A stretch of DNA of 41,949 nt from a virus. Taxonomy: Duplodnaviria; Heunggongvirae; Uroviricota; Caudoviricetes. Of the stretch, positions 2,824-39,441 are shown piece after piece; position 1 is the stretch's first letter; each line of letters starts with the position of its first letter. The position numbers were made by a program, and so were the translations under genes. The notes beneath the pieces were generated by a model that saw only the letters and a program-made list of their open reading frames with translations, did not search any database and was not told the origin of the DNA. The stretch spans positions 1 through 41,949 of IMG/VR virus record IMGVR_UViG_2558860473_000005; one strand, 5' to 3'.

Positions 2824-3603
2824 TCAAAGTGGAGGCTCTGGTAGCGGCATCCAGTGAGTCATTTCATGGGCAAGGATATCTGAGTTAAGTTCCGTCCAAC
2901 TATTCCAATACCCAGATTCATCCCACCATTTAACCTCGACATGCTCGCCGTCTGTCACTAACACATCAGCATACCCTTTCGGCATTCGCTCACTACAGCT
3001 TATCCAACCATCCGGAGTTACCGGAGAGTTGCCAGACAGTGCGTTCTGCAATCGTTCCAGCTTAACGTATTCCTGAACCCTGTTTCCGTCGCACGCCTGA
3101 AGCCATTGCACAGCCTTTTGCGCATCAGTGTGAAAGGTACAAGTGCGACCGTCATCAAATTGCATTTCGTAGAGGTCAGCAACCTGTTTAAACTGCGTTT
3201 GTGGCAACTTGTAAGCCTGGCTTGCATGTACGGCACCATAGAGCATGGCTGCACGGCAGGCGTTCCATCCGACAGCTTTTCCGTGTTCAAACGCGCTGTC
3301 AAAGTCATCATCCATTTCCATCGCATCAGGCACAGATACCGTCTCTGGAGGGGCGGCGTAAAGCGGAGTTACGGTAATTTCGTACTCGTTTATATCCTCG
3401 TCGCTGATATTTGCGAAATAGCGAAGGATGCCTTTCTCTCCACGACTACGAGCGTCAGAGTCCTGAATGATATACGCCACAGGCTCTGCTTCCAGCGATG
3501 CCAGCGCAATCCGTGCCAGTTCCATTTGTTCACCACGGGTAAGCCCGTTTTCAAGCGGATTTTTAATGAACAATTCAATACGTTCTTTGGTAATAGTGGC
3601 CAT
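2824..3603 (-). CDS. Phage protein with C-terminal DUF551-like domain, 259 aa
   Basis: C-terminal segment DGWISCSERMPKGYADVLVTDGEHV...WMPLPEPP resembles DUF551 of lambdoid early-region proteins. Confidence 0.6.
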   Translation of the reverse strand: MATITKERIELFIKNPLENGLTRGEQMELARIALASLEAEPVAYIIQDSDARSRGEKGILRYFANISDEDINEYEITVTPLYAAPPETVSVPDAMEMDDDFDSAFEHGKAVGWNACRAAMLYGAVHASQAYKLPQTQFKQVADLYEMQFDDGRTCTFHTDAQKAVQWLQACDGNRVQEYVKLERLQNALSGNSPVTPDGWISCSERMPKGYADVLVTDGEHVEVKWWDESGYWNSWTELNSDILAHEMTHWMPLPEPPL

Positions 3604-6465: not shown

Positions 6466-6954
6466 TTATTTGATAAGAAGTGAAGGTTTCCCAACTTTGA
6501 GTTGAGCGCCGGGGATATTTATTCCTGCTTTTAGTTGGTGTTTGATTGCCAGTTTGTCGGCTTTAATTGTCGTTTCAAACTCAACGTATTCAGGAGGAAG
6601 GGCGCTTGAGTCGATTATTTCTACAATTTCTGATGGTTTGCGGATTGTTACCTGGTGAATACCTGCTCGAATCTTTTTCTTGCCAACCATTTCAAGCGAT
6701 GAGGCTATATATGCCATAATGCTATCAATCTTATTTTGAATTACTGCTGCTCGTTCATTCAGTGACTTTGCCTCGTCCTTGAGGCGTTCAGCATAACCAG
6801 ATTCATTTTTAATAATGGCAAGAAGTTGCTCTATTTTATCGGTAAATTCTCCTTCCATGCCTTCTATTGTGTCAGCAATCATCTCTGGTTCTAAATCTGA
6901 ATCCATCAATTTTGCGTATTCATTGGCTATTTCATATAGTTTGCTCACTGGCAA
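6466..6954 (-). CDS. Siphovirus Gp157-family protein (companion of RecT-type recombinases), 162 aa
   Basis: Recalled family similarity; overlaps the RecT gene stop as in phage recombination modules. Confidence 0.65.
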   Translation of the reverse strand: MPVSKLYEIANEYAKLMDSDLEPEMIADTIEGMEGEFTDKIEQLLAIIKNESGYAERLKDEAKSLNERAAVIQNKIDSIMAYIASSLEMVGKKKIRAGIHQVTIRKPSEIVEIIDSSALPPEYVEFETTIKADKLAIKHQLKAGINIPGAQLKVGKPSLLIK

Positions 6955-16385: not shown

Positions 16386-16744
16386 ACGAATATCAGTTTG
16401 TGCTTCCATACCCGCCGTCGGTGAACACCTACTGGCGAAGACGGGGAAGCCAATACTACATCAGCGATAAAGGCCAGAAATACCGAAAAGACGTTCAGCA
16501 AATCATCCGCCAACTCAAGTTAGACATTTTCACCAAATCACGACTCCGCATCAAAGTCATCGCAGACGTTCCAGACTCCCGCCGCCGCGACCTCGATAAC
16601 ATCCTGAAAGGTTTACTCGATTCCCTTATCCACGCCGGATTTGCGGAAGACGACGAGCAATTCGATGACATTCGCGTAATTCGTGGTGTGAAAGTACCAG
16701 GCGGACGGCTTGGAATAAAAATCACCGAACTGGAGAACGCATGA
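16382..16744 (+). CDS. rusA: RusA Holliday-junction resolvase, 120 aa
   Basis: RusA-family size and conserved acidic residues; typical nin-region position. Confidence 0.8.
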   Translation: MNEYQFVLPYPPSVNTYWRRRGSQYYISDKGQKYRKDVQQIIRQLKLDIFTKSRLRIKVIADVPDSRRRDLDNILKGLLDSLIHAGFAEDDEQFDDIRVIRGVKVPGGRLGIKITELENA

Positions 16745-16929
16745 ACGCCACAATTCAAACGATACCAGAGCTTCTTATCCAGACACGAGGCAATCAGACC
16801 GAGGTGGCGAGGATGCTTTCCTGTGCAAGAGGAACAGTGCTCAAGTACAACCGAGACAGCAAAGGTGAGCGTCACGTAATAGTTAACGGCGTCCTGATGG
16901 TCAAACAGGGCAAGAGGGGTAGACCATGA
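16741..16929 (+). CDS. ninH: NinH, 62 aa
   Basis: GNQTEVARMLSCARGTVLKY motif matches lambda NinH by recall. Confidence 0.75.
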   Translation: MNATIQTIPELLIQTRGNQTEVARMLSCARGTVLKYNRDSKGERHVIVNGVLMVKQGKRGRP

Positions 16930-17549
16930 GACTCGAAAGTGTAGCTAAATTTCATTCGCCAAAAAGCCCGATGATGAGCGACTCACCACGGGCTACGGCT
17001 TCTGACTCTCTTTCCGGTACTGATGTGATGGCTGCTATGGGGATGGCGCAATCACAAGCCGGATTCGGAATGGCTGCATTCTGCGGTAAGCATGAACTCA
17101 GCCAGAACGACAAACAAAAGGCTATCAACTATCTGATGCAATTTGCACACAAGGTATCGGGGAAATACCGTGGTGTGGCAAAGCTTGAAGGAAATACTAA
17201 GGCAAAGGTACTGCAAGTGCTCGCAACATTCGCTTATGCGGATTATTGCCGTAGTGCCGCGACGCCGGGCGCAAGATGCAGAGATTGCCACGGTACAGGC
17301 CGTGCGGTTGATATAGCAAAAACAGAGCAGTGGGGGAGAGTTGTTGAGAAAGAGTGCGGAAGATGCAAAGGTGTCGGCTATTCAAGGATGCCAGCAAGCG
17401 CCGCATATCGCGCTGTGACGATGCTAATCCCAAATCTTACCCAACCAACCTGGTCACGCACTGTTAAGCCGCTGTATGACGCTCTGGTGGTGCAATGCCA
17501 CAAGGAAGAGTCAATCGCAGACAACATTTTGAATGCGGTCACACGTTAG
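16926..17549 (+). CDS. Q: Late-gene antiterminator Q (lambda-type), 207 aa
   Basis: Sequence essentially lambda Q by recall, including the zinc-binding cysteines. Confidence 0.9.
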   Translation: MRLESVAKFHSPKSPMMSDSPRATASDSLSGTDVMAAMGMAQSQAGFGMAAFCGKHELSQNDKQKAINYLMQFAHKVSGKYRGVAKLEGNTKAKVLQVLATFAYADYCRSAATPGARCRDCHGTGRAVDIAKTEQWGRVVEKECGRCKGVGYSRMPASAAYRAVTMLIPNLTQPTWSRTVKPLYDALVVQCHKEESIADNILNAVTR

Positions 17550-17591
17550 CAGCATGATTGCCACGGATGGCAACATATTAACGGCATAATA

Positions 17592-17626
17592 TTGACTTTT
17601 TGAATAAAGTTGGGTAAATTTGACTC
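17592..17626 (+). promoter_or_regulatory. Late promoter PR' (-35 TTGACT, -10 TAAATT) with qut region
   Basis: Matches the lambda PR' region by recall; 17-bp spacer. Confidence 0.8.
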
Positions 17627-17820
17627 AACGATGGGTTAATTCGCTCGTTGTTGTAGTGAGATGAAAAGAGGCGGCGCTTACTACCGATTCCGCCTAGTTG
17701 GTCACTTCGACGTATCGTCTGGAACTCCAACCATCGCAGGCTGAGAGGTCTGTAAAATGCAATCCCGAAACAGTTCGCAGGTAATAGTTAGAGCCTGCAT
17801 AACGGTTTCGGGATTTTTTA
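17627..17820 (+). ncRNA. 6S RNA-like PR' leader transcript ending at tR'
   Basis: About 194 nt from the predicted start to the tR' hairpin (ATCCCGAAAC ... GTTTCGGGAT + U-run at 17762-17820), as in lambda. Confidence 0.6.
17762..17820 (+). terminator. tR' intrinsic terminator (Q target)
   Basis: 10-bp stem followed by TTTTTT. Confidence 0.8.
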
Positions 17821-17828
17821 TATCTGTG

Positions 17829-18330
17829 TAACAGGTAAGAGCATTCTCCCTTATGGGGCTTGGCTTAAATGCACCGAGTGCTCTTAGCGTTGTGGCAGCA
17901 CAACGATAGTTTTCGTCAGAGTTGGCGACTTTGCGGTTTTTTAGAAACTGACCACAAAGATAAATGCAAACGATGATGTTGTTCTGATGGCGGCGTAATA
18001 GCCTGTAAGTCAGCAAGGTCTTCCGACTCCTTGTAAACAAATTCGGCGCACTGGCCCGGTGTGATTAATAATGGGCACACAACAGGTAAGAGCATTAAAG
18101 AACTGGCAAAGAGCTTAACGGTCTGCGAAAGCATTTCTTAGTGGCACAACTGGCCGGTACAACTGAGTGCTCTTTCCGGTGTGGTGAATGCGCAGGCTGA
18201 TGCGCGCAGGAGAGCTTCGGAAGAACAAGGTGCCTGTATACAAGCCGGAGATCAGCGCCGGCCACCACAGCCAAATCCACCCAGAGTAAAACCGTTGTTC
18301 ATCCTTACCATTCCCTCAGTATTTTGGGCT
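17829..18330 (+). repeat. Tandemly duplicated, diverged ~250-bp unit in the late leader, marked by AACAGGTAAGAGCATT direct repeats (17830-17845, 18081-18096)
   Basis: 16-bp perfect direct repeat 251 bp apart; each unit carries a GAGTGCTCTT...GTTGTG-like segment. Confidence 0.5.
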
Positions 18331-18427
18331 ACAACCCTCAGCCCATTTTTTAAAGCGTACTTCCACCAAGAACCAGACCTAACCAACTCATTGCTGACAC
18401 TCTGTTGATACGGTGGTCTAGTGCGCT

Positions 18428-18460
18428 TTAAAAAAAGAAAACCCAGCATCAATGGCTGGG
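18428..18460 (-). terminator. Minus-strand intrinsic terminator-like hairpin in the late leader
   Basis: CCCAGC-atcaatg-GCTGGG preceded on the + strand by an A-run, i.e. hairpin plus U-run on the minus strand. Confidence 0.4.
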
Positions 18461-18623
18461 CTTCGTGATATGAGCGGCATGTATTGTTGGCGCAATCCAC
18501 GCCTGATTTGCTCATGAATGCGGTCACGAACAAACCCGTTACAAATCAACCGTAACCCGGATTTGTTCAAGCGACCATATCCATAATTCCTAATTTGAAC
18601 AGATCCCCTTCTGGGGGTAAGAC

Positions 18624-18947
18624 ATGAAGATGCCAGAAAAAAATGACCTGTTAGCCGCCATTCTCGCGGCAAAGGAACAAGGCATCGGGGCAATCCTTGC
18701 GTTTGCAATGGCGTACCTTCGCGGCAGATATAATGGCGGTGCGTTTACAAAAACAGTAATCGACGCAACGATGTGCGCCATTATCGCCTGGTTCATTCGT
18801 GACCTTCTCGACTTCGCCGGACTAAGTAGCAATCTCGCTTATATAACGAGCGTGTTCATCGGCTACATCGGTACTGACTCGATTGGTTCGCTTATCAAAC
18901 GCTTCGCTGCTAAAAAAGCCGGAGTAGAAGATGGTGGAAATCAATAA
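18624..18947 (+). CDS. S: Holin S (lambda S107/S105), 107 aa
   Basis: [39 protein letters not shown]... essentially lambda S by recall, incl. dual-start motif. Confidence 0.9.
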
Positions 18948-19407
18948 TCAACGTAAGGCGTTCCTCGATATGCTGGCGTGGTCAGAGGGAACTGATAACG
19001 GACGTCAAAAAACCAGAAATCATGGTTATGACGTCATTGTTGGCGGAGAGCTATTCACTGATTACTCCGATCACCCTCGCAAACTTGTCACGCTAAACCC
19101 CAAACTCAAATCAACAGCAGCCGGACGTTACCAGCTTCTTTCCCGTTGGTGGGATGCCTATCGTAAGCAGCTTGGCCTGAAAGACTTCTCTCCGAAAAGT
19201 CAGGACGCTGTGGCACTGCAACAGATTAAAGAGCGTGGCGCTTTACCGATGATTGATCGCGGTGATATTCGTCAGGCTATCGACCGTTGCAGCAATATCT
19301 GGGCTTCACTGCCGGGGGCTGGTTATGGTCAGTTCGAGCATAAGGCTGACAGCCTGATTGCAAAATTCAAAGAGGCTGGCGGAACGGTCAGAGAGATTGA
19401 GGTATGA
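18931..19407 (+). CDS. R: Endolysin R (lytic transglycosylase), 158 aa
   Basis: Near-identical to lambda R by recall. Confidence 0.9.
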
Positions 19408-19841
19408 GCAGAGTCACCGCGATTATCTCCGCTCTGGTTATCTGCATCATCGTCTGTCTGTCATGGGCTGTTAATCATTACCGTGATAACGCCATGACCT
19501 ACAAAGAGCAGCGCGATAAAGCCACATCCATCATCGCTGATATGCAGAAGCGTCAACGTGATGTAGCAGAACTCGACGCAAGATACACAAAGGAGCTTGC
19601 TGATGCTAACGCGACTATCGAAAGCCTCCGTGCTGATGTTTCTGCTGGTCGTAAGCGCCTGCAAGTCGCCGCCACCTGTGCAAAGTCAACGACCGGAGCC
19701 AGCAGCATGGGCGATGGAGAAAGCCCAAGACTTACAGCAGATGCTGAACTCAATTATTACCGTCTCCGAAGCGGAATCGACAGGATAACCGCGCAGGTTA
19801 ACTACCTGCAGGAATACATCAGGACGCAATGCCTTCGATGA
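19404..19841 (+). CDS. Rz: Spanin inner-membrane subunit Rz, 145 aa
   Basis: N-terminal TM segment and coiled-coil periplasmic domain; N-terminus matches lambda Rz. Confidence 0.85.
19597..19788 (+). CDS. Rz1: Spanin outer-membrane lipoprotein Rz1, embedded in the +1 frame of Rz, 63 aa
   Basis: Lipobox LVVSAC followed by a proline-rich segment; entirely inside Rz. Confidence 0.8.
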
Positions 19842-20280
19842 TAGCGATAATTCTACTCATCATCCTTCACATCTGGCTCTGTAGACAGGGTGGTGATCAC
19901 TTCTGGAGTGAATCCAGATTAAACATCTCATTGCTGATGCTTGAAGTTAAGCATATGGCGCGCGGCAAGGGGCTGCGTTGAGATAAGAGCCAGTTCATTA
20001 CAAAGCCTATCTACGGGTGGGCTTGATAATGAAACCGGAATTTATTCTGGGTAACCAGTTACGGCAGTACAGCGAAACAACCCAAGCCAGAAAGTGGGGA
20101 AATAACACTGGCAGCCACTGAAAGATGAACCTCCAGCCTTATGGCAAAAAAGATTCTTTGTGGTGGCGGACTGATGGAAAGACATCGGATAGAATAAAAC
20201 AGTGGCTAGGGTAGCTGCCGAAAAGCGGAATCGTCACCGCCTGCCACTGAATCTATGACGAACAACTAGACGAGGTTGTG

Positions 20281-37632: not shown

Positions 37633-39441
37633 ATGACAGATTCAATAAATGCCAATGTTGTAGTGAGCATGCCATCGCAACTCTTCACTATGGCTCGTTC
37701 TTTTAAAGCCGTAGCCAATGGCAAAATTTATATCGGTAAAATTGACACTGACCCGGTAAATCCTGAAAACCAGATTCAGGTTTATGTAGAGAACGAAGAC
37801 GGCTCTCACGTTCCTGTTTCTCAACCAATCATCATTAACGCTGCTGGTTACCCAGTATATAACGGACAGATTGCCAAGTTTGTAACCGTGCAAGGCCATT
37901 CTATGGCTGTTTATGATGCGTATGGTGCACAGCAGTTTTATTTTCCTAATGTGCTGAAGTATGACCCTGATCAGTTTGGTCCAGACTTCAAAGAGCAGTT
38001 ATCTCAATCAGGGGAATACATTAATGATGATTCAAAAGGTGATGCATTAATTGGCGTAAGACAGCCCGTTGCCGGGTCGGTAGCTATCACACAGCATGAT
38101 AAAAACGCACAAATAATCAACTTAAAAGATTTTGGTGCTAAGTGCGATGGTGTAACTGATGACACAGTGGCAATTCAGGCTGCTGTAGCTGCTGCGCATA
38201 CTGGTGTCCGTATAGTTCAACCTGCAGGGGTTTGCCTTACATCTCAGCCGTTGTCATTCACTAGTCCTGCATTTTGGTATGGAGATGATGGCGCTCGCAT
38301 TAAGCTCATTAGTGGCAGTCATGACTATGTTATGGAAATTGATCTTCGCGGGCCTAGTGGTTCGTTCTGGGGTTATGGGTCACATATTGAAAACATTATC
38401 TTTGATGGTGGTGGTCACGCAAAAGATGGCCTTTCATTGCGTGGTGTTATCGGAGGTATATTCAAAAATATTCGTGGGACAAATATATCAAGGACCGCTA
38501 TTCATGAATGGTGGACCCAACTTTGCCACTATGAAAATATTCAATGCAGTAATAATATTGAAGCATTCCAAACAACCCCTATTCACGGAATCTTATCTGA
38601 TTGTGAGTTTGGAACTGGTAATGATCGTGGGTCTTCTGCAAATACTTACATGAATACCACTATTGAACATACCTCTGGTAGTGGGATTTGTGGGGTGTTT
38701 ATGTCTAATTGTACATTTATAAATGGCACATCAGAAGGTAACGATATTGGCATTGAGTTTGGTCACGCTACTGATGATAGAAACCAATCAGTTGGGAATT
38801 CAGTTATTGGCATGGATCTTGAAGTTAATTCTTTAACTGATGTGTTATTACATAAAACAACATATGCAAATGACTTTATTGGTCTAAAAGCTGGTTATTC
38901 ATCTCCAGCCATTCAGGTGCAAGGCTCATATGCTAATAGCTTTATTGGTGGAGTAAGCAGTGGTATAGATTTTGACTCATCATCGCATGATAATAAAGTA
39001 ATAGGTATGAATCTTTTAGGCAACGATTCTATCATCGTAGATAACGGGTTAAGAAATTCATATGAGAATATTTTCAATATTTCATCTGGAGCTAAAAAAG
39101 AAAGCACTAACCCTTATCCATCGCGTAGCAACAATATAATTTCATCAAATGGTACTGTGCAAATTAACCCATTTTTATCATCATACTGTGTTGTGTCGGC
39201 TACTGGTTCACCAATTAATGTTACGTCTGTAGCAAAAAAATTAGACGGTGCGACTATTGATATGACTATTCATAACATTTCTGGATCTGATGAATTAATA
39301 GTAAACTGGTCTTCTGACTTCAGAGTTTCTGGATGGACAAGCCCGGCAACAGGGCGCCACCGGTCTATAAGATTTGCTTATGATGCAAACTACGGATACT
39401 GGACTGCTATATCTATGAGTCAGTCAGATATTCTGAACTAA
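37633..39441 (+). CDS. Tailspike protein: P22-type N-terminal head-binding domain plus divergent beta-helix receptor-binding domain, 602 aa
   Basis: First ~115 residues match the P22/Sf6 tailspike N-terminus by recall; the rest has repetitive G/N/S/T-rich strands typical of parallel beta-helix depolymerases. Confidence 0.85.

Follow-up and report, generated by a model that had tools for sequence, protein, structure and literature searches.

P2, a conserved stem-loop with leftward intrinsic-terminator anatomy at the left edge of the holin leader of lambdoid phages, and a neighbouring tmRNA-like RNA

The window, i.e., the whole stretch of 41,949 nucleotides that was analysed, is a lambdoid mosaic; the sizes of the morphogenetic ORFs alone suggest a P22-like virion module. 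The features around the stem-loop considered here, named P2, are the following, from left to right.

16926-17549: lambda-type Q gene.
About 17590-17810: lambda-type pR', qut, 6S RNA and tR', with 97-98% identity to lambda.
About 17905-18096, possibly the whole of 17831-18352, plus strand: core of a tmRNA-like RNA that ends at the 18325-18351 terminator.
18325-18351, plus strand: rightward intrinsic terminator (TGGGCT, 9-nt loop, AGCCCA, TTTTTT), annotated "tQ" in HK620.
18352-18429, plus strand: P1 spacer domain, a helix of AAAGCGUACU (18352-18361) with AGUGCGCUUU (18420-18429) and a C/A-rich interior.
18430-18441, plus strand: A-run AAAAAAAGAAAA.
18442-18447 and 18455-18460, plus strand: arms of the core stem, CCCAGC and GCTGGG, with the loop ATCAATG (18448-18454).
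18464 to 18438, minus strand: P2 terminator-like stem-loop, GAAGCCCAGC-CAUUGAU-GCUGGGUUUU.
18464-18461 with 18441-18438, minus strand only: extension of the stem base, GAAG with UUUU, including two G-U pairs.
18437 to 18430, minus strand: remaining U-tract, a C followed by U7, CUUUUUUU, corresponding to the A-run on the plus strand.
18462-18623, plus strand: structured holin leader.
18462-18468 with 18524-18530, plus strand: helix of UUCGUGA with UCACGAA, enclosing hairpin H2 (18470-18515).
18528-18568, plus strand: hairpin H3, GAACAAAyC with GGAUUUGUUC.
18605-18616, plus strand: sdi-type hairpin CCCC/GGGG; a third GAACAnAUCC copy abuts it and the dual-start site.
18624: start codon of the holin gene S, with R and Rz next.

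The stretch of about 780 nt after tR' is common to HK620 and HK633 (94.5% identity). The rightward terminator at 18325-18351 lies about 85 nt left of P2 (about 85-110 nt across loci) and forms with it a convergent pair around a structured spacer of 78 nt. Whichever the upstream module, a rightward terminator or hairpin always precedes P2 in the homologous loci: tR' in P22 and HK022, the "tQ" terminator in the window and HK620, and others elsewhere. On the right side, the distance from P2 to the first lysis gene is 160 nt in the window (gene S) and always 150-180 nt, before at least six holin types. The nearest real genes of the minus strand are about 17 kb to the right of P2. The full element spans 18430-18464; a preliminary description of 18428-18460, i.e., of the A-run and the core hairpin, had assigned it to the "late leader". 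P2 is upstream of the lysis genes but outside the pR'-tR' leader proper; it is localized past the second rightward terminator, where the structured holin leader has its left boundary.

On the minus strand, P2 has a 10-bp stem of -14.4 kcal/mol (RNAfold), with a core of 6 G-C/A-U pairs and a loop of 7 nt. The mean of the shuffled sequences is -6.6 kcal/mol (z -3.74), and 0 of 200 shuffles equals P2. The stem is directly followed, on its 3' side, by the U-rich tract UUUUCUUUUUUU, as read from the sequence. The reading of CCCAGC/GCTGGG and its A-run as a minus-strand hairpin followed by a U-run, given in the preliminary description, is thus confirmed (z -3.7), and this arrangement is kept in 41 variants. 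In a terminator scan, P2 is called on the minus strand only, ranks first between 15 and 22 kb and is comparable to the strongest terminator-like sites elsewhere in the 42-kb window. The plus strand right of GCTGGG reads CTTCGTG; there is no U-tract after the hairpin on that strand, since CUUCGUGA, found there, contains 3 U in 8. P2 as a bidirectional terminator was rejected on this plus-strand U-tract test, and the bidirectional insulator that had also been proposed is contradicted by the same sequence. P2 has the stem-loop, the U-tract and the compensatory changes (see below) of an intrinsic terminator in the leftward orientation only.

HK620, HK633, HK022, Sf101, epsilon34, SI5, PS119, ST-35 and P22 all carry the hairpin together with its A/U-run. 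Upon 122 IMG/VR loci, retrieved by means of the flanking sequence without P2 itself, about 49 contain P2; the remaining ones have a lambda-type allele with no hairpin, and both alleles meet exactly at CTTCGTGA. There is no leftward terminator in the lambda leader; the P22 leader carries P2. A pattern scan of genome contigs by the flanks alone led to chance matches only. More than 100 viral and metagenomic loci gave 41 distinct variants of the P2 region and 31 distinct hairpins. The U-tract is retained in 41/41 variants, and the A-run is present in every one of them (9-12 A, with at most one interruption). The loop varies freely (CAUUGAU, CAUUGC, CAUAGU, CAUGU, UCAAU, CAAGC and others). Four compensated stems are used, CCCAGC/GCUGGG, CCAGC/GCUGG, CCCGC/GCGGG and CCCCGC/GCGGGG, both arms changing together. 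Across lineages the flanks of P2 have diverged by about 30%, with the U-tract intact and the stem changes paired. The free loop, the paired stem changes and the constant U-tract point to a generic structure-dependent element (e.g., a terminator) and not to a loop-specific binding site.

Nothing is annotated at P2 in the curated records of P22 (BK000583), epsilon34 and HK620. In the epsilon34 paper and in the P22 and epsilon34 records, tR' and the anti-Q RNA are annotated and no feature is given at the P2 hairpin. As judged from its sequence, P2 is of the ordinary intrinsic-terminator type, its novelty being only in its place and its distribution.

Both neighbours of P2 are structured RNAs. P1, on the left, is probably a plus-strand RNA helix: 5 of its 8 pairs have double compensatory changes (RNAalifold, 32 homologues), and G-U pairs, which would be A-C on the minus strand, are fixed in three clades vs. 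2 singleton reverse cases. In one locus (L078) the interior of P1 is nearly deleted; the helix, the A-run and the hairpin are kept. The composition of the P1 interior on the plus strand (C 31%, G 17%) is suggestive only of a Rho-loading (rut) site for read-through that is not antiterminated.

The holin leader, on the right, is a chain of conserved, covarying helices located before at least six holin classes. H2 corresponds by homology to the lambda hairpin GGCAGGAGG...CCUCCUGCC-GUUUUG. The late leader of lambda contains, in the same leader region as P2, tandem rightward terminators, i.e., tR' and the downstream hairpin GGCAGGAGG...CCTCCTGCC-GTTTTG. Q-modified polymerase reads through these rightward-facing terminators, whereas P2 faces the opposite direction and is absent from lambda. 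By eye, CCGTAGCCAC appears as a motif shared by the plus strand of lambda and the minus strand of HK022, i.e., in opposite orientation. The 3' arm of H3, GGAUUUGUUC (18559-18568), can pair either with GAACAAAC (18528-) or with the third copy, GAACAGAUCC (18597-18606); judged by eye, this alternative pairing looks like a switch for holin/antiholin translation.

Small-RNA sequencing of P22-infected cells gave ten phage RNAs (PMC13397905). The sole RNA listed at the place of P2 is P22E, of 101 nt, plus strand and abundant in P22-infected Salmonella; no minus-strand RNA is found there among the ten (PMC13397905). P22E comes from homologous DNA (window about 18347-18450) and comprises P1, the A-run and the 5' half of the hairpin; its body is the P22 counterpart of P1 (BK000583, about 37964-38064; L131, about 1065-1165). 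When mapped on the P22 record, it starts about 20 nt past tR' and its 3' end is in the loop of the P2 hairpin. P22E is reported for P22 only, and its strand is opposite to that of the proposed terminator function of P2 (PMC13397905).

These data bear on a first alternative, which we consider possible, if on the unlikely side, namely that P2 is a plus-strand hairpin. It would be the final helix, after P1 and an A-rich linker, in a structured late-leader RNA that runs on into the helices of the holin leader. The A-run would then be a single-stranded linker, e.g., an (ARN)n Hfq-type site or a spacer, and the likeness to a reversed terminator would be incidental. The covariation of P1 with its fixed plus-strand-only G-U pairs, and the fact that P22E covers exactly P1 through to the P2 loop, agree with this alternative, as do the fixed 150-180 nt from P2 to the holin start and the presence of H2, H3, the sdi hairpin and the dual-start site, all plus-strand mRNA features, before several unrelated holin classes. 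However, the A-run is left unexplained, kept as it is in every variant at 9-12 A with no more than one interruption, the loop is not conserved and the extension of the stem base pairs on the minus strand only. Moreover, P22E may be a decay intermediate; its reported 3' end is inside the loop instead of past the hairpin, and its stated distance to gene 13 misfits the record (48 nt according to PMC13397905 vs. about 180 nt by mapping on BK000583).

The strand evidence for the hairpin and its neighbourhood is mixed. The P2 hairpin is about 3 kcal/mol more stable on the minus strand than its complement, owing to the G-U pairs at the stem base. The whole domain also folds better as minus-strand RNA in 30 of 32 homologues; no weight was given to this whole-domain bias because the minus strand is rich in G+U, which favours folding regardless of function. 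Variants with a single substitution that retains a wobble pair are 3 minus-only vs. 1 plus-only, i.e., too few to decide. By eye, there is no covariation between the A-run and the U-rich flank upstream, with which it might pair. The invariant U-tract, for which there is no plus-strand reason supported by the data, is still the best indication of orientation. The sdi-type hairpin of P22 (L131, 1323-1338; window 18605-18616) also scores as terminator-like on the minus strand (CCUCACGACCGUGAGG then AUUUGUUCAA). Reversed terminator-like shapes in the leader can thus come from plus-strand RNA structures, and P2 has to be considered with the corresponding caution.

The lack of a protein gene on the minus strand upstream of P2, pointed out in the preliminary description, is borne out. 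The ORFs 18252..18533 and 18418..18708 were rejected as genes: both cross the hairpin and the S leader, and their homologues carry indels of 1-3 nt. Their equivalents in Sf101_0056/SI5 were rejected on the same grounds (hairpin crossed, indels of 1-3 nt). One locus that extends from Q to portal without lysis genes (L144) has a leftward HTH-like ORF of 64 aa (6752-6943), whose stop is 23 nt before the hairpin; this is a single case, and the family match is weak (Pfam HTH_37, E 0.015).

Inserts directly right of the hairpin are rare, but three were seen, the leftward ORF of L144 being one, and this junction is a hot spot of insertion. That of ST-35 (L009, 1303-1821) contains a rightward ORF of 172 aa, also present in L137 and L186 and resembling, by eye, an HNH/NUMOD-type homing endonuclease. 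Another one (L202) contains two rightward ORFs of about 260 aa, by eye a kinase and a PP2C-type phosphatase.

No minus-strand promoter was obtained between P2 and 19446 with the promoter scan tool. A position-weight scan of 110 distinct homologous leaders, over the 520 nt upstream on the minus strand, gave neither a sigma-70 promoter nor a promoter position common to the homologue groups; the best score of the window over these 520 nt is 6.6 vs. a shuffle mean of 8.3. A CII-type TTGC-N6-TTGC box was not seen by eye. P2 is thus not at the 3' end of a recognisable transcription unit, the minus strand being without a gene and without a promoter within 520 nt. The Rfam search gave no match to RF02703 or RF02702, either at E <= 10 in 18280-18640 or at E <= 1 in 16500-20000, and no match to STnc100 in the window. 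At the hairpin the matches are at chance level only (isrJ, E 1.6; rnk leader, E 4.9). The same search detects AsxR in 933W with 88 bits.

Downstream of pR', leftward sRNAs in convergent orientation form an established class, i.e., AsxR and AgvB of Stx and other EHEC lambdoid prophages (PMC4104026). Like P2, AsxR/AgvB (RF02703, RF02702; Tree et al. 2014, PMC4104026) have leftward terminators downstream of pR' and the moron slot, facing a plus-strand RNA gene whose end comes just before; P2 has the same position, convergent with pR' at the right edge of that slot. The differences are as follows: (i) AsxR/AgvB have their own promoter for a primary transcript of 51-60 nt, that of AsxR (TTGCGC-17-TAAAAT) being evident, whereas P2 has no promoter 50-60 nt upstream; (ii) there is no sequence or covariance-model match between P2 and AsxR/AgvB; (iii) in 933W, STnc100 (plus strand) ends at 3483 and AsxR (minus strand) at 3485 (Rfam search), so that their 3' ends abut, whereas P2 and its partner terminator are separated by the 78-nt structured spacer; (iv) P2 precedes a lysis cassette of lambda-S type, whereas AsxR/AgvB are set behind stx. 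P2 was therefore rejected as a member of the AsxR/AgvB family, both the covariance-model match and the promoter test having failed.

It seems unlikely that a discrete regulatory RNA, transcribed leftward, has its 3' end at P2; its promoter would be weak or factor-dependent and thus missed by consensus scans. Such an RNA would be either a cis-antisense RNA of about 160-200 nt over the holin leader and start, or a short trans-acting sRNA of AsxR type. The layout of the minus strand is sRNA-like (stem-loops, short linker, terminator, long U-tail), the P2-holin distance is constant, and AsxR/AgvB, whose 3' ends abut a plus-strand RNA, hold the same position relative to pR' and the moron inserts. 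Nevertheless, the promoter was not found and the best score is below the shuffle mean, as opposed to the near-consensus promoter of AsxR. No CII-type box is visible, Rfam gives nothing better than E 1.6, and the ten reported P22 RNAs include no minus-strand RNA there. Lambda, in addition, shares the whole region right of the hairpin and yet has no terminator. The sole possible antisense target of a short leftward RNA ending at P2 is the holin leader (18462-18623). It appears quite unlikely that a cis-antisense RNA ending at P2 is made in lysogens or early after induction, covers H2, H3, the sdi hairpin and the dual start, and blocks holin from leaky read-through or sets lysis timing in P22, HK022, HK620, Sf101 and epsilon34-type phages and not in lambda. 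From the preliminary description, which took a leftward terminator to imply a small transcript, the terminator anatomy, leftward only, and the existence of a known class of this type (AsxR/AgvB) are retained. The short leftward RNA itself finds no other support in the sequence: there is no promoter within 520 nt and no Rfam match, and the only P22 RNA listed there is on the plus strand.

The precise junction of the alleles at CTTCGTGA and the variety of the inserts directly right of the hairpin (HNH gene, kinase/phosphatase pair, HTH-like ORF) would suit another origin, which is to be held quite improbable: P2 would be a relic or linker without function, i.e., the leftover terminator of a former leftward moron within the "boundary sequence" of lambdoid recombination. 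Such a boundary sequence is annotated in the leader in the CUS-3 record, and lambda manages without P2. Decay would be expected for a relic, yet the stem changes are paired and the U-tract is intact across flanks that have diverged by about 30%.

P2 and its rightward partner resemble ordinary convergent terminator pairs in hairpin anatomy, U-tract, order (plus then minus) and spacing; unlike these pairs, what lies right of P2 is not a leftward gene but the leader and the start of a rightward holin gene. The order, a rightward terminator followed by a leftward one, is that expected between convergent transcription units. With the anatomy, orientation, conservation, compensated stem changes and position described, P2 may best be explained as a genuine but orphan leftward intrinsic terminator, convergent with the terminator at 18325-18351, a proposal that we make tentatively and at somewhat less than even probability. 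P2 is called orphan because no leftward gene or recognisable promoter feeds it in the phage of the window. A polymerase moving leftward would come first to the GC-rich hairpin and next to the U-tract, and would be released independently of any factor. With the rightward terminator, P2 makes up a convergent pair that encloses the small structured spacer, where the pR'/moron slot borders on the holin leader. Leftward (antisense) transcription coming from the lysis/late region, or from leftward inserts on the right side, would be halted by P2, and the polymerases would thus be stopped before the RNA genes, pR' and Q. We infer the existence of this leftward transcription, the stopping of which would be the selected function.

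In favour of the leftward terminator were counted the leftward ORF that ends before the hairpin in L144 and the leftward RNAs of Stx phages in the same niche (PMC4104026). Against it were counted the lack of a promoter, the distance of about 17 kb to the minus-strand genes, the plus-strand-only G-U pairs of P1, the plus strand of P22E, the fact that L144 is a single weak case, and the absence of P2 from lambda. Since lambda has neither P2 nor any other leftward terminator in its leader, P2 is dispensable.

The RNA located left of the pair deserves its own description. The tmRNA-like core contains a tag frame at 17966-17998, ...UAGAAACUGACCACAAAGAUAAAU GCA AAC GAU GAU GUU GUU CUG AUG GCG GCG UAA, i.e., ANDDVVLMAA*, in which a conserved resume-codon context precedes a frame of 10 codons. 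An in-frame UAG is located seven codons upstream of the tag, with no start codon or Shine-Dalgarno sequence in between. The tag starts with GCA and ends as a degron of the hydrophobic-A-A type. The tag of E. coli tmRNA is ANDENYALAA. At least 16 tag variants have the same 10-codon form (e.g., ANEEMYLAVA, ANDEQFLAVA, ANDDLMLMAA, ANDNTFLAVA and ANDEKFALAA). The stop codon is in a hairpin like helix 5, which is followed by two pseudoknots, the total being five helices. In 30 diverse sequences, 95.9% of the cells are paired and 15 of 23 pairs have double changes; 0 of 500 shuffles match this, and the slid controls are at 30-46%. Two invariant G-U pairs determine the strand, which is plus.

Rfam gives weak matches to two tmRNA families (27.4 bits, E 0.001-0.006, vs. 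a gathering score of 47). No tRNA-like domain (acceptor stem with G3-U70, T-arm, 3' CCA) was detected, the Rfam match does not cover one, and with ARAGORN neither the window nor any of 35 related loci yields a tmRNA call. The RNA is not called a tmRNA here because the tRNA-like domain is undetectable. Its homologues are present in 758 GenBank phage records from unrelated groups: HK620, Vi01 and T765 (Ackermannviridae), Felix O1 (within the tRNA cluster), siphoviruses of Klebsiella and E. coli, Vibrio phages and Erwinia phages. In the 2014 tmRNA census, phage ssrA was found only in mycobacteriophages and Bacillus phage G (PMC4131195). In the literature searched, no description of this tmRNA-like element was found.

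Two other elements were observed in the same region. A hairpin GCCGG-AGAUCAGCR-CCGGC, directly followed by CACCA (18246-18270, plus strand), is common to the window and to Klebsiella phage T765 (Ackermannviridae; L133, stretch 641-1120). It is reminiscent, as far as its sequence tells, of an acceptor-type minihelix with a CCA end; a canonical T-loop and G3-U70 are absent. The sequence ACAGGTAAGAGCATT occurs twice (17831-17845/18083-18097 and 17876-17890/18174-18190), and both copies have a pairing partner downstream, (G)AGTGCTCTT(A/T). The resulting long-range helices bracket variable inserts, and the same helix is found in the late leader of lambda (L007, about 990-1060) and in phage C1. The 3' arms, GUGCUCUUU/GUGCUCUUA, presumably resemble the boxA of rrn/nut (UGCUCUUUAACAA).

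The tmRNA-like RNA matters more than P2. It points to a widespread phage RNA, by which a phage-specified degradation tag may be fed into ribosome rescue. As for P2, if the terminator works, it would give a large group of model temperate phages (P22, HK022, HK620 and Sf6-like phages) a point of control, so far unannotated, in front of the lysis genes and past the late promoter, and it would imply a leftward transcription across the holin leader that has so far not been looked for. It would then bear on the silence of the holin in lysogens and on the insulation of modules in mosaic phage genomes. If P2 does not terminate, it would be a conserved RNA hairpin of the late leader, of modest importance.
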